NCBI GenBank assembly: GCA_001275005.1
Contig: JWZX01003125.1
Location: forward strand, 1-50,060
DNA length: 50,060 nucleotides
Direction: 5' to 3'
DNA from: Chrysochromulina tobinii
Lineage: Eukaryota
Of this stretch, positions 12,159-50,060 are shown piece after piece. The notes under the pieces are model-generated. The model was not told the DNA's origin and searched no databases. It worked only from the letters and a program-made list of their open reading frames with translations. Each line of letters begins with the position of its first letter. The stretch's first letter is position 1. A program made the translations under genes and the position numbers.

Positions 12159-14841
12159 ATGAACTTCGTCCACGGCGCGTCGTCGGACACGGCCGAGAAG
12201 GGCGAGCGGTACGGCTGGTCGAGGCCCGTGCCGGCTGCTCGTAGAGGCCGCAAACGGCCGCATGACGACGAGAGCGATGAGGATGCCTACTTTGACAAGG
12301 ACGAGGAGCCACAGCATTCCAGAGCGGCAGCACCAACGCCCGAAGAGGACCCTCTGGATGCCTTCATGGCCGAGCTACACGGGCGCAACGCGCGCACTGC
12401 TCCGCAAACTGACGACCCTGCTGCGCCTGCTGCCACTCGCCCTGCCACGGCTGGCGCCGTAAAGCCGTGGGATGCAGCTCCACCTCCTCCCCCAACGGCG
12501 GATGACTTGGAAGAGGACCCTCTGGACGCGTTCATGGCCGGTCTCGCATCGGCGCCCTCACAGCCCAAGGGCAGGGAGCGCGCCGTCCAGCAGTGCGACG
12601 AAGAGGAGGATCCGGTCGCGTCGTACCTCGAAGAGAGCGGGCTGCGCGCGGCGGAGGCCGAGGCCGAGGCCGAGGCCGAGGTTGACGGTGGCAGCGTACG
12701 CCGGCAGCTCAAGGGCCAAAAGGGTGGCGGGAGCTCCATCGGCGCGGAGCTGCTTCCGGTGGACCACGCGGCCATTGAGTACGATGCATTTGAGCGCGAG
12801 CTCTACGCTCCACACCCGACGATCCGTGAGCTGAGCGCCGAGCAGGTGCGCGAGCGGCGAGCTGTGCTACGGCTGAGCGTGAGCGGCTTCGACGTGCCCT
12901 CGCCCATCGCGCGCTTCGAGCACGCAGGCCTGCCACGCGAGCTGCTCGCGACGGTGCGTAAGCTCGGTTACGAGGAGCCCACATCCGTGCAGATGCAGGC
13001 GCTGCCGGTGGCCATGTCGGGCCGTGACCTGATCGGCGTGGCTGCGACTGGCTCGGGCAAGACGGTGGCGTATCTGCTGCCTCTCGGATGCCACGTGATG
13101 GCACAGCGCCGTCTCGAGCACGGCGAGGGCCCGATCGGCCTCGTGCTCGCGCCCACGCACGAGCTCGCCGAACAGATTGCCCTCGAGTGCCGCAAGCTGC
13201 TGGGTCGCTCCCTCGGCCTCAATTGTGCGTCACTCATCGGGGGCGTCGGCAAGTACGAGCAGCTCAAGGCCCTCCGGGCGGGCTGCGAGGTCGCGGTGGG
13301 CACGCCCGGCCGCCTCGTCGAGCTCCTCGCGATGAAGAACGGCCTGTGTGCGCGCCGTGTGACCTTCGTGGTCCTCGACGAGGCCGACCGCATGTTCTCG
13401 CTCGGTTTCGAGCCGCAGGTGTGAACACGGCTGTGAGCACGGCGGGGCCGAGGTTCAGCAGACACTCTGAGCCCATCAGATGGCCTCCCGATGGCCTCCC
13501 GATGGCCTCCCGATGGCCCCCGATGGCCTCCCGATGCCCCCCCGATGGCCCCCCGATGGCCCCCCGAGCTGCTCCCGAGCTGATCACATTCGGTGGCCCT
13601 CGCCCGATCGCTTGCAGGTGCGCGCGATCTTGCAGCAGGTGCGCCCGGACCGCCAGGCCCTCCTCTTCTCCGCCACCTTCCCGCCGGCGCTCGAGCGGCT
13701 CGCGCGCGATAGCCTCTCGGAGCCCATCCGGCTGGCTATCGGCACGGCGGGCGACGCGAACGAGGACGTGACACAGCTCGTCGAGGTGCTGCCGACCGAG
13801 GAGCTCAAGTGGCCGTGGCTTGCCGCGCGCCTCGAGCACTTTCTGCAGCAGGGCACTGTCCTCGTCTTCGTCTCGACACGGCTTCAGGCGGATGGACTGG
13901 CGGCACAGCTGCAGGCGCACATGGGACGCGCCGTCGTGGCGATCCACGGAGAGAAGAGCCAAGCCGAGCGCCAGGAGACCCTGTATGACTTCAAGCGCGG
14001 CAAGATGCCGCTGCTCGTGGCGACGGACGTGGCGTCACGCGGCCTCGACATCCCCACTATCAAGACTGTCATCAACTTTGACGTGGCCAAGCGCCTCGAT
14101 GACCACACGCACCGCATTGGACGTACGGGCCGCGCCGGCGCCACTGACGGAACCGCGTACACGCTGCTGACGGCGGGTGAGATGGATGCTGCCGTGGACA
14201 TGGTGCGCAGCCTGCGGACGGCGCGGCAGGTGCCCTCAGAAGAGCTCCTTCAACTGGCCCGGCGCTCGCGCAGGTGGGCCGCCTCTGGCCTCGATGACAG
14301 CTCTATTGGCGGCGGGAGCGGCGGAGGAGACGGCGTTGACAGAGGCTGCGGGAGCGGCGGCGCCGGCGAGGCTGGCCGTGGTTTGCGCCATCAGTTTGCG
14401 CCACCATCGCAGCATCGCGTCGCCTTGCTCGAGCACTCCACATCAGATCCTGTAGCGCGTGCACAAGCTTTCGCCGCGAGACTCAGTTCGCAGTTGGGCA
14501 CTGCCGCCGGTGCCAACGGCTACTCCTCTCACCAGTTTGCACCGCCGCCGTCGCATTTCCTGCCGCCGCCACGACCACCACCGCCGCAGCCACCGCCACC
14601 ACCACCGCCACCACCACCGCCACGGCTGGCAACCTCAGCAGCAGCGTGCGGCGGTGAAGTACCCCCTGGCATCCCCCCCGCCCTCCCGACGTGCCAGGCT
14701 GCTGCAGTTGCCGCAGCGCGTGCAGCAGCTGAAGCGATCGCCTCCCGGCTATCGGCCTCGGCTGCAAACGGTGGCGCCGCTCCGCCGCCCCCAGCACCCC
14801 CCGACAGTGGCGGCGGCGCACGTTCGAGCCGTTGGAGTTGA
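12159..14841 (+). CDS. DDX42: DEAD-box RNA helicase DDX42 (SF3b125)-like, two exons (12159-13418, 13618-14841)
   Basis: EEDPLDAFMA repeats, VDHAAIEY..FER, ATGSGKT, DEADRMFSLGFEPQ|VRAILQQVRPDRQALLFSATF, ANEDVTQ, KWPWL, HTHRIGRTGRAG. Confidence 0.88.
13419..13617 (+). other. GT-AG intron of DDX42 containing an array of GATGGCCTCCC-type repeats
   Basis: Removal joins FEPQ to VRAIL in frame; GCAGGTG occurs at both junctions. Confidence 0.85.
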
Positions 14842-43004: not shown

Positions 43005-43341
43005 CGCGCGCGTGTGGTACAGCGGATTGGGGTTGCAGCCACCTGCCGTGACTGGGCGAACTGTCTGTTCATCCGCGTTTTCAACGGTTCCATAAATAGC
43101 ATTGGCACATATCCAAGCATGCATGCGCCGACCGCCGAGCGTGACCAACAACAGATACACCTCCATACATTGTACTACTAGCACTATTACGTACTTGTAC
43201 TTTATTTCTTCATTCCCATGCAGCCTACTTGTATTCGGTCAGTTCTGAGACCTCTCCCGCGACGGTCGCGCCTCTCTGCTTTTATCCGCTTACGAAAGCC
43301 AGATCTGTCGAAGCAGCACCTCCTGCTCCTGCTCCTCCTGC

Positions 43342-46300
43342 TCAGGAGATGACAATCTCGAAGAGCTGCGCGTCCTGAATCGACCACGCGCTCGCATCGA
43401 GCTCCGTGAGCCCCGCCCCCTTCTCCGCAGCGCCGTCGCGCCGAGGGCAACGCAGCAGCCGGCCGGTGTGCGCGCGGAAGGAAACGATGTCCCCATGCCG
43501 CAGCAGATGGGGCGGCTTATGGCGCGGCGCCGTCGTGGGCGGCGGCGCGCCCGGCCAGCTACCCGTCGACGGCGCCGTCGTGGGCACCAGTTCGATCCGA
43601 AACGCTTGCCATTCGGCAACCTCCGTCCACCGAGCCTGCACCGCGCTGCCCTCGACGTCCAAGCAGTAACCGTTGCCTCCGCGCAGGCTCACCGTCTCGC
43701 CTGAGAAGAGGGGACCGCCCGCCGTGGTGAGCACTTGCATGCAAGGCAGCTCATCCGTGGCAATCAACGTACCTGAGAAGAGGGGACCGCCCGCCTTCTT
43801 CTCGATGAGCACTGCGCCGTAGTGGCGGTGCGCGGGCGTGAAGTGAGCGGGTAACGGCGCAATCCCCACCTGATGAGGGGAGCAATCATGGGCAATGAGT
43901 GCGGTCATCAGAGGCCATCAAGTGGGCGGGTGACGGCGCATTCCCCACATGGTTGGCAAACAAAAGATAGACGGGAAGCTCAGTCGCGCGCTCGGAACAG
44001 CGCTCGGTGGCGGCGGTCGCCGGGCGGGCGTCTTCGTGCAAGGGCTTGGGACGGTCCGCCTCAAACGCAGCCCACGTGTCCGCTCCTCCAGCGCCGTCCT
44101 GGGCGCCGTCCTGAGCACCGTCCCGAGCGCCTTCCCGAGCACCACTCGCGGGCTTGGGGCTCTCTTCGAAAGATTCGGCGGCGGAGATCACGCCAGATTC
44201 GGCGGCGGAGATCACGCCAGATTCGGCGGCGGAGATCACGCCAGATTCGGCGGCGGAGATCACGCCAGATTCGGCGGCGGAGATCACGCCAGATTCGGCG
44301 GCGGAGATCACGCCAGATTCGGCGGCGGAGATCGGCGAGGCGAAGCCGAAGGCGAACGATTCCGAGGGCGAGCCTGATGAGTGGCGTCATCAGAGGCGAT
44401 CAATGGCGCGTCATCAGAGGCAATCAGTGGCGCGTCATCAGAGGCCATCCACGGCAGCTGCAGGTGGCGGCGCACCCAGTGGTGAAGCGAAGGTCGCCGC
44501 GAGAGTCGCATTCACGATCGTCCCTTGCTTGAACGCGGCGCTACCTTTCCTGACGGAGGTCCCAAGGGTGCTCCCGAGGGCAGGGCCGATGGCAGCCGCA
44601 CTCTCAGCCTCGCTCAGCGCGCGTAGCATCACCTGTGCAACGAGTGGCGTCATCAGAGGTCATCAAAGGCCATCAGAGGTCATCAGAGGCCATCCGAGAC
44701 ACATTAGGAGCTGAGTGCCCAAGTGCCATCGGTGGCCATCAGAGGCGATCAGAGGCGATCAGAGGCGATCAGAGGCGATCAGAGGCGATCAAGAGGCGAT
44801 CAAGAGGCGATCAGAGGTCATAAGTGCCAATTGCACCTACGTGCCCGAATGGAGCGTGGGACGTCATCAGCAGTCATCATTATTCAACAGCAATCATCAG
44901 CCGTCATCAGCCGTCATCAGCCGTCATCAGCCGTCATCATGACGCACCTTAGTGCCCGAATGGAGCGTGGGACGAACGCGTGGCGCTCCTGCCAACGCCT
45001 GCAGAGACTCGGGGCAGTGGTCCGTGCCGGCCTCGAGCGCCGACAGCCTGATCCGAAACAGAGGAGCGCTGATGAGGGAGGCAATCAAGGACCATCAGAG
45101 GCCATCCGAGGCAATCAGACCTGATCCGAAAATAGGAGCGCTGATGAGGCGAGATGAAGTACGGCTCACAGACCGTCTTGAGCGCCGTCCACGAGTCATG
45201 ACCACCCACGCCCATATGGAGAGCATCGAGGTGGACGTAGATCGAGGGCTCACGCCACTCGCGGAGTCGGTCGGTCGGCGGCGGCTGAGGGCGCGGCGGC
45301 GGCGGCGGCGGCACTGGCGCGCCGTGCTGGCGCGAGATCGTGAGCTCGTCCAGCGAGATGTTGTGTACCGTCATCAAGCTGGGCGGCAGCTCGGGCTGGC
45401 GGAGCGCCGTGCTGGGCAGTACCATGTCGGGCCACAGCACCGTGTTGGGCGGTGCCATGTCGGGGCGCAGCTCGCGCTCGTGTTTCGCCTCGGTGAGCGC
45501 CCCGACCGAGTAGGCGGACACGCTCACCTGGAGAGGGGGCGTGAGTGGCCCCGTGGCCAGCAGCAGCCCGCCGCCGCCGCCCCTGCCCTCGCCGCCGCCC
45601 TCGCCCTCGCCCTCCTCCTCACCGGGCGCCGTATTGGGCGCGCGCACCGCCAGCCAGCGCACGCCGCCCCGCCCGCCGTTCTCACTGGGCACCACGTAGG
45701 CAGTGTGCATGCCCTCGAGGGGTAGCGTGTGCACGCCGAGCCACGCCGAGGCCATCCGATCGGGGTAATTCTCGTGAGGGCCCAGCCCATACCTAATGAG
45801 GGAGGCACTCAGATGCAATCATACATGCGATTCCGATCGGGGTCATTCTCGTGAGGGCCCAGCCCATACCTAATGAGGGAGGCACTCAGATGCAATCATA
45901 CATGCAATTCCGATCGGGGTCATTCTCGTGGGGGCCCAGCCCGTACCATGTGACGAGTGTCGAAGTGCCGCCGTCGATGCCGCCGCCGGTGCCGCCGCCG
46001 GTGCCACTGCCGGTGCCAGTGCTGGTGCTGGTGCCAGTGCTGATGCCGGTGGCTCCGGTCGGTCGAGGAAGTTCGAGGATGACTCCAACGCGAGGTATGC
46101 TCGCAGGGCTCTCAGACGAAGGGTCGCCATTCGCCGCCGGCAGGCGCACCTGCAGCCGTCATCAGCCGTCATCAGTCGTCATCAGTCGTCATCAGCCGTC
46201 ATCAGCCGTCATCAGCCGTCATCAGCCGTCATCAGCCGTCATCAGCCGTCATCAGCCGTCATCAGTGACCATCGGCGCACCTGCAGCTGCAGATGACAGC

Positions 46301-49300
46301 AGACCTCGATGCTCGCGTCCCCCGCGATGAGATACACGAACGTCGCCGTACCAAGGCGCTGCCCCTTGTCGCCGAGCAGCCCCCAGTCGACGAGGACCGA
46401 CACGAGGGAGCGGCACGGCTGCCACGCACGCAGCCCCTCGAGGGTGCGGCTCATGTTGTGAAGCCCCGCCGCTCGCCATTGGTCGGCGTAACGGCCGAGT
46501 TCGTCATTGTCCGTTGGCGCGCGCCAGAGCGACGGGATCGGCCCCACCTGATGAAGGACGCAATCAGAGGTCATCAGTGGTTATCAGTGGTCCTCAGTGG
46601 TCCCAAAACGGTCATCAGAGGTCATCAGAGGTCATCAGCGGTCATCAGTGGTCATCAGAGGTCATCAGAGGTCCCAAAGCGAAGGGATCGGCCCCACCTT
46701 GGCCTTGAGCCTGCCGTCCACCACGTAGTTACGAAGCACGCCGTCTGCATCCACAGAGACGTCGAAGTGCTCTCCCGAGACGCTCCATCCGCCATGGCCG
46801 TCTGCAGCGAGCGTGAGCGGCGCCAGCGCATCGAGCTCGAGAAAGGGCGACGCGCCACTCTTCGTCAGCGCACCAGCACCGCCGCCGCCGCCGCTGCCCG
46901 CGAGGACGCACGGCGCACAGGGCGGCGGCGTGACCTCCCATGTGAAACGACCGACGGTTTCACCTCGGGCGGCCCACGCGTGCTCATCGCGCCAGATCGT
47001 GACGAGATCGATGGCCAGGGTGCCGCCAATCGGCGCCGCAAACGCCGCCGAGAGCGCCGCATGCCATGGAAGCGACGTCGCCGCAATCGACCACGTGGCA
47101 CCGGGCGGCAGGGCAGGGGTGCTCGCAAAGGCACCGTCGGCCATCGGGAGCCCGTCGCGGCGCAGCTGCCAGCGGAGCGCCGTGGTGAGCACTTGCATGC
47201 AAGGCAGGTCATCGGTGGCAATCAGCGCAGCTGCCAGCGAAGCGCCGTGGTGAGCACTTGCATGCAAGGCAGGTCCTCGGCGGCAATCAACGTACCTGCC
47301 AGCGGAGCGCGTACAGTTCGTCGAAGCGCCCGAAATCGAGCATCGAGCGCAGCGTGAGCAGCCGGCCTGTGGGCGCGAGGGTGGCGTACAATGGCTGCTG
47401 CAGATGGCGCACCTGATGGGGGAGGCAATCATGGCCCGTGGGCGCGAGGGTGGCGTACAATGGCTGCTGCAGATGGCGCACCTGATGAGGGAGGCAATCA
47501 TGGACCCTCAGAGGTCATCAGCAGCGTGAGGATGGCGCTACAGGGGCTGCTGCAGACGGCGCACCTCCTCTAGCGCAGGGTGTGGCGTCCGGTCGGGGAA
47601 CGTGAGGCCATTGATGCAGAACTGGCGATCGTGCTGGTAGGAATGGGGCCCGAAGTCGCCGCCGTACGCCCAGCGCATCGTGCCATCGGAGAGCCGTTGG
47701 AGCAGCCCCTGGTCGCACCTGATGAGGGAGGCAATCATGGATCATCCATGGCCATGAGCAGCAGCAGCAGAGAAGCCGATGGAGCAGGCCCTAATCGCAC
47801 CAGCCCCAGATGACCCCTGATGAAGGAGGCCATCATGTATCATCAGTGGTCATCAGTGGGCGCACCAGTCCCAGATGAAGCCGCCTTGCACGTGCGCATG
47901 CTCCCGGAAGAGCGCCCAATAGTCCGCAAGCCCGCCGTTCGAATTGCCCATGGCATGCGAGTACTCGCACAGGAGCAGCGGCCGGTCGTCATTCCCCACA
48001 GCGTCGACCAAATGGGCGCAGTGCTCGGGGCGCGCGTACATGGGCGAGATCACCTGGGAGATACATGGGAGATACATGGGAGATACATGAGCGATACATG
48101 GGCGAGATCACCTGGGAGTCACTCAGCGGCACTCAGCGGCACTCAGCGTCACTCAGCGGGGTTCAGAAGAGAGACTAGGGCGACCAGAGGGGCCTTAGAA
48201 GAGAGATTAGGGCCATCCGAGGGCATCGGAGGGCGATGCCGAGGCGATCCGAGGGCATCAGAGGGCGATGCCGAGGCCATCCGAGGGCCATCACCTCGGA
48301 GGCGCCGTTGTGGCAGTTGCCCAGCCCTTCGTAGTGAGAGGGACGCGTCGGGTCGCGCGCGTTGATCCACTGCCGCATGAGCAGATGGGTGGGTCCAACG
48401 CCACTCTCATTCCCCAGAGACCACATGAAGATGCATGCGTGGTTCTTCTGCGACTCGACCATACGTGTGACGCGAGCTAGCAGGGCACGCCGCCACTCGG
48501 GCGACGCGTTCAGATGGAGCTTGTTCGAGGGGGCGGGCAGGGAGACGAGGCCGTGCGTCTCGATGTTGGCCTCGTCCATGACGTACAGACCCACCTCATC
48601 ACAGATCTCGTACCTGATGAGGGGCGCAATCAAAGGTATTGAGGGACGCAAACAAAGGTAATGAGGGACGCAATCAAAGCTGGGCGCGCGGCCGCACCTG
48701 ATGAGGGACGCAATCAAAGCTGATGAGGGACGCAATCAAAGCTGATGATGAGGGGTGCACTCAGGGGACGCACTCAGAGGGCGCAGCTCAGGGGCACTCC
48801 GAGCCAGATCGCGAGCTCGTCGCAGATCGCGAGCTCGACGCAGATCGCGAGCTCGTCGCGGAGGTCGCGTACCAGCGCGTCGCGTTTGGATAGTGCGAGC
48901 AGCGCCTCGCGTGATGAGGGAGGCAATCGAGGGTGGCAATCACGTACCAGCGCGTCGCGTTTGGATAGTGCGAGCAGCGCGTCGCGTTGAAGTTGTACTT
49001 CTTCATCATCAGCGCGTCCGTCCACATGGACGCATCGCTCACGTACCTGATGAGGGGGGCACTCAGGTGCAATCATGCATGCAATCAGATGCCATTCGAG
49101 GCACTCTGTATAGCACGACCCCGCTCACGCACTTGCCCGTGTGCTCATCGTGCTCGTGCCGGTTGACGCCCTTGAAGATGACCGGCACGCCGTTGATCAG
49201 CAACTTCTTGCCTTGCACGCAGCATGTGCGCGCACCCAGCCGCTGCCATTCCCACTCGAGCACCCCACCAGGCTCCTCGCCCGCGTACCTGTGATGAGGG

Positions 49301-50060
49301 AGGCAATCCGAGGCACTCAGAAGCACTCAGAAGCACTCCGAGGCACTCAGAAGCCCTCAGAAGCAATCCGAGGCACTTCCACACGAACATCCCCACAGGC
49401 CCTCGCGCGCGCGCACCGCTCAACCGCGGCCATCAGCGGCCATCAGCGGCCATCAGCGGTCATCAGTGGCCATCAGTGGCCATCAGCGGCCATCAGTGGC
49501 CATCCGCGGCCATCAGTGGTCATCAGTGGTCATCAGAGGTCATCAGTGGTCATCGGTGGTCATCAGTGCGCGCGCACCGCTCATCCGCGGCCAGCATCGC
49601 GCCCGTGACGACGCCATCGGGCGCCTCGGCTGCGGCGTCGCTCACGTCAAGCAGAGCGAGGCTGAGAGTGTACCTGATGAGGGAGACCATCAGGCGTCAT
49701 CAGGCGTCATCCAGGCGTCATCCAGGCGTCATCAGAGGTCATCAGAGGTCATCAGAGGTCATCAGAGGTCATCAGAGGTCATCAGAGGTCATCAGAGGCC
49801 TTCCGAGGCGATCCGAGGGGTCATAAGGGCCATCCGAGGCGATCCATCCGTCCACAGAGGCCATCCGACGTACAGGTAGGGCGACTCGGCCGACCAGAGC
49901 TGCGGACTTTCGAGCGCCGTCTCGATTTCCAGGGGCAGCACATCCGCGCGTGCCGCCGTCGTCTCCTCCTGGCCCACCCATACGCGCGGCGCGCGGGCCC
50001 AGTTTGGAAAGAGGCCGCCGCCGCCGCCGCCGCCCCCGCCGCCGCTGCCGCCACCGACGC
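43342..50060 (-). CDS. lacZ: GH2 beta-galactosidase (LacZ-like) with a C-terminal fascin/beta-trefoil-like domain; 5' end outside the window; 16 predicted introns
   Basis: The spliced frame gives [154 protein letters not shown] and [15 protein letters not shown]. Confidence 0.92.
43701..43772 (-). other. Intron 16: 49-nt donor cassette and a perfect duplicate of the upstream exon end
   Basis: 24-bp direct repeat at 43700-43723 and 43772-43795. The 72-nt length is in frame, so retention would also read through. Confidence 0.75.
43870..43948 (-). other. Intron 15: 29-nt exon duplicate and acceptor cassette
   Basis: Intron start GTGGGGAATGCGCCGTCACCCGCCCACTT vs exon start GTGGGGATTGCGCCGTTACCCGCTCACTT (26/29); ends ATGATTGCTCCCCTCATCAG. 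Confidence 0.85.
44171..44333 (-). repeat. Perfect 24-bp tandem repeat (six full units and one partial) encoding (ISAAESGV)n
   Basis: AGATTCGGCGGCGGAGATCACGCC repeated head to tail on the plus strand, with no spacers. Confidence 0.92.
44374..44475 (-). other. Intron 14 (donor position least certain)
   Basis: G|GTGCGC...GACGCCACTCATCAG|GC keeps the frame into the ISAAESGV repeat exon. Confidence 0.5.
44633..44947 (-). other. Intron 13: two repeat arrays and a copy of the upstream exon end
   Basis: AAG|GTGCGT...TTGCACAG|GTG; duplicate GTCCCACGCTCCATTCGGGCAC at about 44841-44862. Confidence 0.65.
45048..45120 (-). other. Intron 12: ends in a ~30-nt duplicate of the upstream exon end
   Basis: ATCAG|GTCTGATTGCC...CCTCATCAGCGCTCCTCTGTTTCGGATCAG|GCTG restores FRIRLSAL. 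Confidence 0.75.
45793..45946 (-). other. Intron 11: two 77-nt units, each a 38-nt exon duplicate plus a 39-nt acceptor cassette
   Basis: Restores [15 protein letters not shown]. Confidence 0.88.
46150..46280 (-). other. Intron 10: (TGATGACGGC)n body flanked by a 14-nt junction repeat
   Basis: GCTGCAG|GTGCGCC at both ends; restores LQLQVRLP. Confidence 0.85.
46548..46697 (-). other. Intron 9: 24-nt exon duplicate, repeat array and acceptor cassette
   Basis: Intron start GTGGGGCCGATCCCTTCGCTTTGG vs exon start GTGGGGCCGATCCCGTCGCTCTGG; restores [16 protein letters not shown]. Confidence 0.88.
47166..47295 (-). other. Intron 8: donor cassette (two units) and a duplicate of the upstream exon end
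   Basis: CAG|GTACGTTGATTGCC...GTGCTCACCAC-GGCGCTCCGCTGGCAG|CTG restores ALRWQLRR. Confidence 0.82.
47413..47564 (-). other. Intron 7: ~40-nt exon duplicate and two tandem acceptor cassettes 69 bp apart
   Basis: GAG|GTGCGCCGTCTGCAGCAGCC...CATCAG|GTGCGCCATCTGCAGCAGCC restores EEVRHLQQP. Confidence 0.8.
47719..47865 (-). other. Intron 6: acceptor cassettes and a degenerate copy of the uninterrupted junction
   Basis: TG|GTGCG...ATGATTGCCTCCCTCATCAG|GTGCG restores WDWCDQG. Confidence 0.88.
48054..48294 (-). other. Intron 5: repeat-rich, with a duplicated acceptor junction
   Basis: GAG|GTGAT...CTCCCAG|GTGATCTCGCCCATGTA restores ASEVISPMY; a second CTCCCAGGTGATCTCGCCCATGTA lies at about 48096-48119. 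Confidence 0.8.
48614..48947 (-). other. Intron 4: stacked acceptor cassettes and a copy of the upstream exon end
   Basis: TG|GTACG...TGATTGCGCCCCTCATCAG|GTACG restores NATRWYEICDE. Confidence 0.85.
49047..49132 (-). other. Intron 3: acceptor cassette; 11-nt duplicate of the downstream exon start
   Basis: AA|GTGCGTGAGCG...CTGAGTGCCCCCCTCATCAG|GTACGTGAGCG restores HTGKYVSD. Confidence 0.85.
49289..49577 (-). other. Intron 2: acceptor cassette; internal copy of its own donor junction; TGATGGCCRC-type arrays
   Basis: CG|GTGCGCG...GATTGCCTCCCTCATCACAG|GTACGCG restores DERYAGEE. Confidence 0.75.
49674..49873 (-). other. Intron 1 (within window): acceptor cassette; GTAC duplicated at both ends; (TGATGACCTC)n body
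   Basis: CT|GTACGT...TCTCCCTCATCAG|GTAC restores PYLYTL. Confidence 0.85.

Follow-up and report, generated by a model that had tools for sequence, protein, structure and literature searches.

A spliced intron of two tandem 77-nt units in a Chrysochromulina tobinii beta-galactosidase gene, and its probable origin from a short intron-making element

The window, by which we mean the whole stretch of 50,060 nt that was analysed (Chrysochromulina tobinii contig JWZX01003125.1), carries on its minus strand a gene for a LacZ-like GH2 beta-galactosidase. Removing 12 introns by coordinates (between 49873 and 45048) gave a frame of 1008 codons with no stop, in which Pfam recognised Glyco_hydro_2_C (6.8e-29) and Bgal_small_N (2.6e-27). 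The borders of introns I1, I7, I8 and I12 were set by the open frame. Besides the intron studied here, RNA contigs leave out five further introns of the gene, with joints that include 49577-49289, 48294-48054, 47865-47719 and 46280-46150, and contig pieces are consistent with introns 49132-49047, 48947-48614 and 46697-46548. The gene and those of its other introns that bear on the argument are as follows.

43340..50060, minus strand: host gene, encoding a LacZ-like GH2 beta-galactosidase that is extended at its C terminus; the 5' end of the gene is outside the window
49047..49132, minus strand: intron I3, with the closest cassette relative in the window (35/39 identical to C1 below); its insert is longer, and its duplication of 11 nt begins with GT
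47413..47564, minus strand: intron I7, same class as the 154-nt intron below, with a 69-nt tandem duplication that covers the cassette and 49 nt of exon start (Tandem Repeats Finder: period 69, 2.0 copies, 97%)
47166..47295, minus strand: intron I8, of another class, in which GTACGT is supplied by the element and the AG by a 15-nt duplication; it consists of two units of 65 nt (Tandem Repeats Finder: period 65)
46280-46150, minus strand: intron I10, both splice sites from a 14-nt duplicate containing AGGT (a 7+7-nt repeat around AG|GT)

The duplication in I7 is a simple one of 69 nt that spans the acceptor. The second unit of I8 starts with the exon's own first six bases, which replace the GTACGT of the element; the GTACGT class is also found at 43700-43770.

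The intron at 45793-45946 is built as two tandem 77-nt units. Its parts, read in the direction of transcription, are listed below.

45793..45946, minus strand: the whole intron, 154 nt, GTACGG...CATTAG, phase 2, splitting a TGG codon; skipped exactly in RNA contigs of runs X12, X15 and X16
45909..45946, minus strand: T1, a 38-nt copy of the downstream exon's beginning and the first of two; its first 2 bases are the donor GT in use, as given by the RNA joint
45870..45908, minus strand: C1, 39-nt cassette ending CCTCCCTCATTAG, with a predicted branch-site-like motif, a pyrimidine run and YAG, all with putative roles in splicing
45832..45869, minus strand: T2, second 38-nt copy, a mosaic that is exon-like at positions 4 and 16 and T1-like at position 26
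45793..45831, minus strand: C2, second cassette, with 1 difference from C1; its last AG is the acceptor in use, as given by the RNA joint
45755..45792, minus strand: T3, the original 38 nt, which start the downstream exon and encode part of the beta-galactosidase small-chain domain (Pfam Bgal_small_N, 2.6e-27, on its frame)

Tandem Repeats Finder reported the region 45755-45947 with period 77, 2.5 copies, 96% matches and a score of 358. Compared by coordinates, T1 has three mismatches to T3 (positions 4, 16 and 26) and T2 has one (position 26). The two cassettes agree at all but 1 of 39 positions and both end in TTAG. The repeat stops after 38 nt, where T1 is followed by the cassette and T3 by unrelated exon sequence. 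A sequence-only reading of this DNA had described the intron as two 77-nt units, each a 38-nt exon copy (3 and 1 mismatches) plus a 39-nt cassette, and our coordinates agree with it.

One contig in each of the three RNA runs (X12, X15 and X16) joins 45789 to 45944. The joint omits 154 nt and has the ends CT..AC when the cut is moved by +3, which corresponds to an intron at 45793-45946 with GT..AG on the minus strand. The shorter side of these contigs measures 82-161 nt, and they contain no other differing letter. All 154 nt are removed from the RNA. Removal restores the reading frame across the junction, and the retained intron would place stops in all three frames. The joint runs from the GT of T1 to the AG of C2, which bears out the proposed anatomy of the unit, with the exon-start copy giving the GT and the cassette giving the AG.

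Copies of the cassette were searched for in the window with a 19-nt core, allowing at most 4 mismatches on both strands. The 18 matches were confined to the minus strand and to the beta-galactosidase gene, where they lie from 43870 to 49692; at the same threshold the core was absent from either strand of the remaining 43 kb of the window. Thirteen related acceptor cassettes had been claimed from sequence alone. Twelve of these lie at the end of a core match or 2 nt from it (at the one listed at 49289 the core ends at 49291 and AG follows), and the one at 44374 shares only the end ...CTCATCAG.

Outside the window, a degenerate form of the 19-nt core was used to scan metagenomes as a proxy for a whole-genome census. 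The core was found in at least 149 metagenome stretches with at least 229 matches, and its copies stood in at least 208-215 unique contexts. The 80 rows listed carried 27 different assembly prefixes in their contig names. These copies probably come from one species complex, so that they sample a genome rather than many taxa. In general, a conserved intron-end module of about 20 nt stands behind repeats of about 10 nt, and the inserts consist mostly of these repeats. The sense-strand count was 86 of 124 copies, which is weak, the classifier being correct in 21 of 26 known cases. Three exact matches in viral contigs (two identical AT-rich stretches of 43% GC and one of 62% GC) had no decamer context or duplicate and were set aside as chance.

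From the matches listed, 126 terminal, unique and usable copies were examined for an anchored upstream match, with a score of at least 9, to the sequence after the AG. An initial control with 12-mers taken 30-75 nt downstream was contaminated by long duplicates and tandem units (16-33 hits in 184) and was replaced by permuted upstream/downstream pairs. An upstream copy was present in 66 of the 126, versus 1.6% of permuted pairs, and at the stricter score of at least 20 it was present in 30 of the 126, versus 0.08%. In these metagenome copies, then, the predicted excess of similarity between the start of a cassette-bearing intron and the start of its downstream exon was found. The cassette is a multi-locus family, each copy with its locus-specific duplicate of the sequence after the AG. 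The other 60 copies had no duplicate of score 9 or more; they could be old, have short duplications or be of different origin.

Among the 66 duplicates, 48 started with GT, 8 with GC and 10 otherwise, against a GT background of 4.2%, in line with the earlier observation that the downstream exons mostly begin with GT. The duplicates were donor-like beyond the GT as well, with a purine at +3 in 90% versus 59% and G at +5 in 52% versus 30%. The GT excess fits a tolerance of GT-containing duplications only, and it fits equally a target preference for AG|GT sites. Since 18 of the 66 duplicates start otherwise than with GT, the insertion step itself needs no GT. In the 44 single-unit predicted introns with GT or GC, the duplicate measured 9-55 nt (median 21.5; 9-48 nt for mismatch-free ones), and the inserts measured 28-190 nt, with a common 3' end and heterogeneous 5' ends.

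The cassette could also have reached this site without any mobile element. It would then have been copied in cis from an intron of the same gene, as filler during break repair by template switching or end joining, and the 38-nt duplicate would be a by-product of the repair. Several features speak for such copying: the closest relative of the cassette in the window (35/39) is in I3 of the same gene, 3.2 kb away; 18/18 window copies are in one gene, with none in the other 43 kb; and family introns contain extra pieces of nearby exons, as in loci L004 and L118 and, as additional copies inside the introns, in I4 and I6. However, predicted introns end in the same core at no fewer than 149 stretches, spread over many contigs, and each has a duplicate of its own, which argues that the sequence moves between loci. 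Filler would also not be expected to end at an AG every time, including in copies whose duplicate does not start with GT. We therefore regard copying in cis as unlikely.

The sequence-only reading held that the unit had been inserted twice. Our comparison does not support this: T2 is a mosaic of its neighbours and C1 and C2 differ at only one position, which fits one insertion followed by tandem duplication. T2 is exon-like at positions 4 and 16 and T1-like at position 26, exactly as one tandem duplication or unequal exchange with its breakpoint between 16 and 26 would leave it; with that breakpoint the 38-mers need zero extra changes. C1 and C2 also carry the same four differences from their nearest relative, the I3 cassette. 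Elsewhere in the family, 16 of 66 loci have at least two units, and in 7 of these 16 the units are of equal length and at least 94% identical; in one more, L091, they measure 77, 78 and 78 nt.

Two independent insertions would have to hit the same site and duplicate the same 38 nt each time. The units are complete and in register, as such insertions would leave them, and nested second insertions do seem to occur at other loci. L038 and L118 have units with unequal duplicate lengths and inserts, which fits nested second insertions and suggests that repeated insertion near one site happens; the second insert of L118 has its own 35-nt duplicate across the old donor. For the 154-nt intron, however, both events would have had to yield the same duplicate of 38 nt and the same truncation to 39 nt, although loci range over 9-55 nt and 28-190 nt in these lengths, and position 26 of T2 would have had to change from T to G in parallel. 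The four private differences common to C1 and C2, and the 1/39 difference between them, would be left unexplained. The other multi-unit introns of the host gene, I7 and I8, are plainly segmental duplications. A double insertion is thus quite improbable here.

Taken together, our results describe a real, spliced intron of two units. Most likely a short, non-autonomous intron-making element was inserted once, and the resulting unit was then duplicated locally. The insertion event itself is read from its footprint. A 3'-anchored element ending ...CCTCCCTCAT(C/T)AG would have been inserted in the exon, between ..CACATG and GTATGGG.., and would have made a staggered target duplication of 38 nt. The upstream duplicate, adjoining the old exon end and starting GTAYGG, would then act as the donor, and the branch region, pyrimidine run and acceptor would come from the cassette. 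The predicted branch point is one of the CTGA(T/G) motifs, 16-30 nt upstream of the AG. Duplicate and insert would be spliced out exactly, leaving the protein unchanged. The duplicate may later have diverged at three sites, after which the 77-nt unit would have been copied once, by unequal exchange or replication slippage between the 38-nt repeats, or equally by any tandem duplication breaking between positions 16 and 26. The same mRNA would result from either donor/acceptor pairing or from stepwise removal. An empty site was not encountered among the at least 149 metagenome loci, all chosen for holding the cassette and not including the window's own gene. All-against-all BLAST of the metagenome loci and the window gave 17 matching locus pairs, 7 of them aligned over at least 250 nt, and no presence/absence of a whole insert among them.

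The chemistry of insertion is the weakest step of this proposal. Duplications that vary from 9 to 55 nt, and inserts with an exact end and a ragged one, resemble the products of target-primed reverse transcription of the SINE/LINE kind and not those of a cut-and-paste transposase. Non-LTR retroposition leaves variable, often long target duplications and copies with a constant 3' end and a variable 5' extent, including very short non-autonomous copies; most retroposons carry a poly(A) or simple 3' tail. The 44 single-unit predicted introns resemble such retroposons in their variable-length duplication, constant 3' end and variable 5' extent. They differ in that the constant end ...CCTCCCTCATCAG has no poly(A) or simple 3' tail, and in that the inserts go down to 28 nt. 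Introners derived from non-LTR elements have been reported (PMC12130899).

One tentative and rather doubtful possibility is that the template was excised intron RNA, or its 3' part, reverse-transcribed by target priming at nicks in transcribed genes. This would account for the exact AG ends, which also occur with duplicates that lack an initial GT, for the ragged other end and for the long variable duplications. It would also explain the pile-up of copies in single genes (18 here and 0 in the neighbouring 43 kb). If it were true, introns would breed introns, and the long repeats on either side would promote tandem multiplication of units and, through reciprocal exchange, the exact loss of introns.

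Published systems share part of this anatomy. In Symbiodinium, and in classes 4/5 and 6/8/10 of Polarella glacialis, the 3' splice site of introner-like elements belongs to the element and the 5' site is recruited from the target duplication (bioRxiv 10.1101/2020.10.14.339549). As described there, those introners have in common with the present family a short multi-copy element whose end is the acceptor AG, a donor made of the first bases of the upstream duplicate, splicing out of duplicate plus element with an unchanged mRNA, and a single orientation that yields an intron. They differ in having a fixed duplicate of 4 or 8 nt (GHNN, GHN6) and inverted repeats, whereas here the duplicate is 9-55 nt, one end is exact and one ragged, and the inserts consist largely of repeats of about 10 nt. 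Introners of marine Chrysochromulina sp. metagenome-assembled genomes are present in hundreds of copies per genome, mostly in genes, with 4-bp duplications (PMC9860276, Supplementary Table 5). These duplications, as they are described, differ from those of our cassette family. Family 5 of those genomes has an element-borne donor and an acceptor supplied by the duplicate (PMC9860276), an arrangement that resembles the GTACGT class of I8 and 43700-43770. A literature search of limited scope, on haptophyte introners and repeat-rich haptophyte introns, found no description of long-duplication introners.

An ordinary cut-and-paste, MITE-like introner DNA transposon, as in Micromonas, Aureococcus and Symbiodinium, would follow the published logic of AG from the element and GT from the duplication, and a 7-nt sequence of the internal decamers, CTGATGA, is the reverse complement of the TCATCAG end. 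However, published introners have target duplications of 3-9 bp in the survey of Gozashti et al. 2022 (PMC9860276), or a fixed 3, 4, 5 or 8 nt per class in the classes described in bioRxiv 10.1101/2020.10.14.339549, and the 9-55-nt duplicates here vary even among mismatch-free pairs. The 5' insert ends are ragged, and no terminal inverted repeat was seen at the insert ends. The fixed 3-9 bp duplication and terminal inverted repeats of MITE-type introners are thus not what this family has, and such a transposon is a very unlikely source. CTGATGA and CTGA had also suggested two RNA candidates, both rejected: a hammerhead retrozyme gave no covariance-model match at E up to 1, and C/D-box snoRNA hits of 21-24 bits compared with gathering scores of 36-41.

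Introns formed by tandem duplication include a potato case and fission-yeast introns that span 2-4 tandem duplicates (PMC4974935). Three units of our gene are like the potato case, as it is described there, in being tandem duplicates over the 3' part of an intron plus the exon start: the second one of 77 nt in the 154-nt intron, the 69-nt one of I7 and the 65-nt one of I8. The first 77-nt unit departs from the tandem-duplication (Rogers) model, since its 39-nt cassette, which holds the AG, is not exon sequence and is a member of a dispersed family. That model derives both splice sites from a duplicated exon segment containing AGGT and involves no foreign sequence; this arrangement was seen in I10 only and not in the 154-nt intron.

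That the repeat is an assembly artefact, or a tandem repeat with no role in splicing, is hardly credible: short-read assemblies do break at this repeat, and DNA run X9 covers the region only in contig pieces, but contigs from three RNA runs join exactly across it, and the X9 pieces show no differences from the window, the one with the repeated junction having a depth of 54.7 versus 25-31 in neighbouring pieces, about 2x.

The origin of new spliceosomal introns is a long-standing question, and introners are their best-documented source. The cassette family belongs to the introner kind: the same short sequence is found at many loci, the element boundary is one splice site and the duplicate supplies the other, and removal from RNA was seen at 45793-45946. 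Its duplications are far longer and more variable than the published 3-9 bp. Introners as described in the sources considered here have the short, fixed target duplications typical of transposases (bioRxiv 10.1101/2020.10.14.339549; PMC9860276). Here a family of tiny elements duplicates 9-55 nt of coding sequence, which is then used as the 5' end of the intron, and the long variable duplications point to an insertion chemistry different from that of transposase-type introners. A simple rule for the survival of insertions may follow, namely that the duplicate must begin like a donor. The flanking repeats would let units multiply in tandem, and exchange between repeats would offer a route to both intron growth and exact loss.

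One further copy of the class-A module was noted at L043, within an apparent intron and without a clear duplicate. Near-identical metagenome contigs differ in internal repeat copy number, with an 80-nt array difference in one case and a 19-nt cassette difference in another.

The intron at 45793-45946 (minus strand) belongs to a beta-galactosidase gene (43340-50060, minus strand), whose LacZ-like GH2 product is recognized in Pfam through exons matching Glyco_hydro_2_C (E 6.8e-29) and Bgal_small_N (E 2.6e-27). In each of three metatranscriptome runs (X12, X15 and X16), a contig joins 45789 to 45944, with 154 nt skipped, GT..AG borders on the minus strand, a shorter side of 82-161 nt and zero mismatches. 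Joining ...ACATG to GTATGGG... gives a 14-residue protein reading across the junction, and retention brings stops in all frames. Five other introns of this gene are skipped in the same runs and three further ones fit contig pieces; when all 12 introns, set by coordinates (I1-I12), are removed, the part of the gene inside the window forms a 1008-codon open frame. In conclusion, 45793-45946 is an intron that is spliced whole. The RNA evidence consists of assembled contigs, so rare forms, e.g. with one 77-nt unit retained, may exist.

The intron and the start of the next exon are made of three copies of a 38-mer (T) and two copies of a 39-mer (C), the latter a cassette, i.e. a short intron-end module ending in AG:

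45946-45909, minus strand: T1, 38-mer, directly after ...CTCGTCACATG
45908-45870, minus strand: C1, 39-mer, by sequence comparison
45869-45832, minus strand: T2, second 38-mer, by sequence comparison
45831-45793, minus strand: C2, second 39-mer, by sequence comparison
45792-45755, minus strand: T3, third 38-mer, continuing into coding sequence

Tandem Repeats Finder reported period 77, 2.5 copies and 96% matches for this array. By coordinates, T1 has three mismatches to T3 (positions 4, 16 and 26) and T2 a single one (position 26); between C1 and C2 one position differs. The sequence-only reading described this doubled unit of 38-mer plus 39-mer exactly.

That reading also held that the unit was "inserted twice". 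From a start state T1-C-T3, duplication of any 77-nt segment would give a middle 38-mer with the left part of T3 and the right part of T1. T2 is exactly the predicted mosaic, with its breakpoint between positions 16 and 26, and this single duplication needs zero further changes in the 38-mers and one in the cassette. Two separate insertions, in contrast, would need the identical 38-nt duplicate twice, the identical 39-nt cassette, truncated alike and sharing four private differences from its closest relative (that of I3, 35/39), and a parallel T-to-G change. One insertion followed by duplication of the 77-nt unit is therefore the likely course, in place of the earlier proposal. The two other multi-unit introns of the gene agree with this order of events: in the second unit of I8 (47166-47295, minus strand), the exon's first six bases stand in place of the element's GTACGT, and I7 (47413-47564, minus strand) simply duplicates 69 nt, made up of the cassette and 49 nt of exon.

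Multiple units were also found at metagenome loci carrying the conserved 19-nt cassette core. Among the matches listed, 16 of 66 loci have at least two units; in 7 of these 16 the units are of equal length and at least 94% identical, one locus (L091) has units of 77, 78 and 78 nt, and other multi-unit loci have duplicate borders in common and differ in repeat number. L038 and L118 look like nested second insertions. Near-identical contigs of different assemblies show repeat-number polymorphism in these introns: L004 and L006, otherwise 97% identical, differ in a 20-nt intron repeat, of which one has 80 nt more, and L105 and L136 differ by a single 19-nt cassette unit. The introns thus undergo slippage or unequal exchange, and the reciprocal product of such exchange would be exact intron loss.

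For the duplication test beyond the window, a degenerate core pattern was scanned against metagenome contigs, giving at least 229 matches in at least 149 stretches. Among the matches listed, 126 copies were usable (identical contexts removed, last cassette per array, at least 200 nt upstream and at least 60 nt downstream). For each, the best ungapped match of the post-AG sequence was sought anywhere in 380 nt upstream; as control, each upstream was paired with the downstream of another locus in 20 rounds. Among these listed matches, an upstream duplicate scoring at least 9 was found in 66 of 126 copies versus 1.6% of control pairs, and one scoring at least 20 in 30 of 126 versus 0.08%. The excess similarity between intron and exon starts that had been predicted from the sequence was thus observed, and its absence, named beforehand as the contrary outcome, was not seen. 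The 66 listed duplicates start with GT (48), GC (8) or other dinucleotides (10), versus a downstream-exon background of 4.2% GT and 12.6% GC. The 48 GT starts look like donors by their sequence: among the matches listed, 90% have a purine at +3 (59% of background GT sites) and 52% a G at +5 (30% of background). The preceding exon ends in AG in 27 of these 48, some cases preceded by another cassette included. The downstream flank was called sense-coding in 86 of 124 listed copies by a rough codon-position test that classified 21 of 26 known windows correctly; this weakly supports a sense bias. Several metagenome contigs carry at least two listed cassette loci within a few kb.

The shape of the insertions was described for 44 single-unit introns starting with GT or GC among the matches listed. 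Their duplicates are 9-55 nt long (median 21.5); mismatch-free duplicates themselves span 9-48 nt, so this spread is not decay. Inserts are 28-190 nt long (median 53.5), with a common end of about 20 nt (CTGATTGCNTCCCTCATCAG), locus-specific variants of a roughly 10-nt repeat 5' of it, and no fixed start point. In 50 listed single-unit loci, longer duplicates tend to go with shorter inserts (Spearman -0.59) and the total has a median of 79.5 nt, which may reflect a splicing length optimum, ageing (arrays grow, duplicates decay) or the mechanism. Four C/T changes, at positions 9, 19, 29 and 37, separate C1/C2 (45793-45908) from the I3 cassette (49047-49085, minus strand); three of them share one phase of the 10-nt repeat, and each intron across the listed loci has its own homogeneous repeat variant; this pattern suggests concerted change or reiterative synthesis. 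A C/D-box snoRNA reading of decamer arrays (46587-46655 and 49750-49799, minus strand) was rejected at 21-24 bits versus Rfam gathering scores of 36-41; CTGATGA and CTGA probably mimic C and D boxes by chance.

The proposed role of the cassette is that of a portable 3' splice module, with branch-site-like CTGA(T/G) motifs, the CCTCCCTC pyrimidine run and YAG, and the first bases of the duplicate would become the donor. In 45793-45946 these bases are GTAYGG, the donor used in the RNA joint. The coding sequence stays untouched, because duplicate and insert are both removed. Insertion by target-primed reverse transcription is conceivable at somewhat under even chances: the exact end opposite a ragged one and the long duplicates of variable length bear its signature, but the cassette elements have no tail and no known partner enzyme. 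A transposase is unlikely, because published introners have duplications of 3-9 bp (PMC9860276) or class-fixed lengths (bioRxiv 10.1101/2020.10.14.339549).

The splice-site logic is shared with Symbiodinium and Polarella introner-like elements (bioRxiv 10.1101/2020.10.14.339549) and with introners in general (PMC9860276); marine Chrysochromulina MAGs carry introners by the hundreds, '4-bp' duplications being given for one family (PMC9860276). Unit duplication in the host gene matches the tandem-duplication route to introns (PMC4974935) and also published intron gain by repeat expansion. Our literature search, limited in coverage, turned up no report of introners whose duplications are long and variable, or of such introners growing in tandem. 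The present analysis contributes the cassette family, RNA proof of splicing, the lengths of the duplicates and their donor-like bias, and evidence that units were duplicated in tandem.

Across the host gene, a direct repeat spans both borders in 12 of 12 introns (total 4 to 39 nt). Nine (I1-I4, I6, I7, I9, I11 and, in part, I10) begin with a repeat of the start of the next exon, and most of these end in a cassette. In I8, I12 and the intron at ~43700-43770, the GT is at the element's beginning, and a 15-22-nt duplicate ending in AG provides the acceptor. With at most 4 mismatches, the core has 18 matches in the window, all on the minus strand within the host gene. The remaining 43 kb has none; at least ten genes with long uninterrupted frames lie there, among them genes for DEAD-box helicases and for HORMA, EF-hand, LRR, RING and other proteins. 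Likewise, 43 of 45 minus-strand CTGATGAC matches lie within the beta-galactosidase gene (window 1-43000 versus 43340-50060).

A second class of element is 50 nt long and runs from GTACGTTGATTGCC to ...GCAAGTGCTCACCACG. Its copies at 47166-47295 and ~43700-43770 (minus strand) are flanked by 15-nt and 22-nt duplicates ending in AG, the acceptor source; I8 has the element twice, in two 65-nt units, and its 3' half has one more copy in a metagenome locus (L043:704-725). I10 (46150-46280, minus strand), skipped in RNA contigs, is a pure CTGATGACGG array between two copies of a 14-nt segment containing AG/GT; the duplicate supplies both splice sites, as in the classical tandem-duplication model. 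I6 (47719-47865, minus strand) has degenerate extra copies of surrounding exon sequence across the junction, and I4 (48614-48947, minus strand) degenerate extra copies of ~33-38 nt of the upstream exon end; both have several cassettes in a row and look like nested or repeated events. The gene's C-terminal extension holds 6.8 copies of a 24-nt unit, 100% identical, at 44171-44333. In a DEAD-box helicase gene, the intron at 13421-13617 (plus strand) has eight copies of an 11-nt GATGGCCTCCC repeat and an ordinary end, ...GCTTGCAG, and its borders have only CAG/GTG in common.
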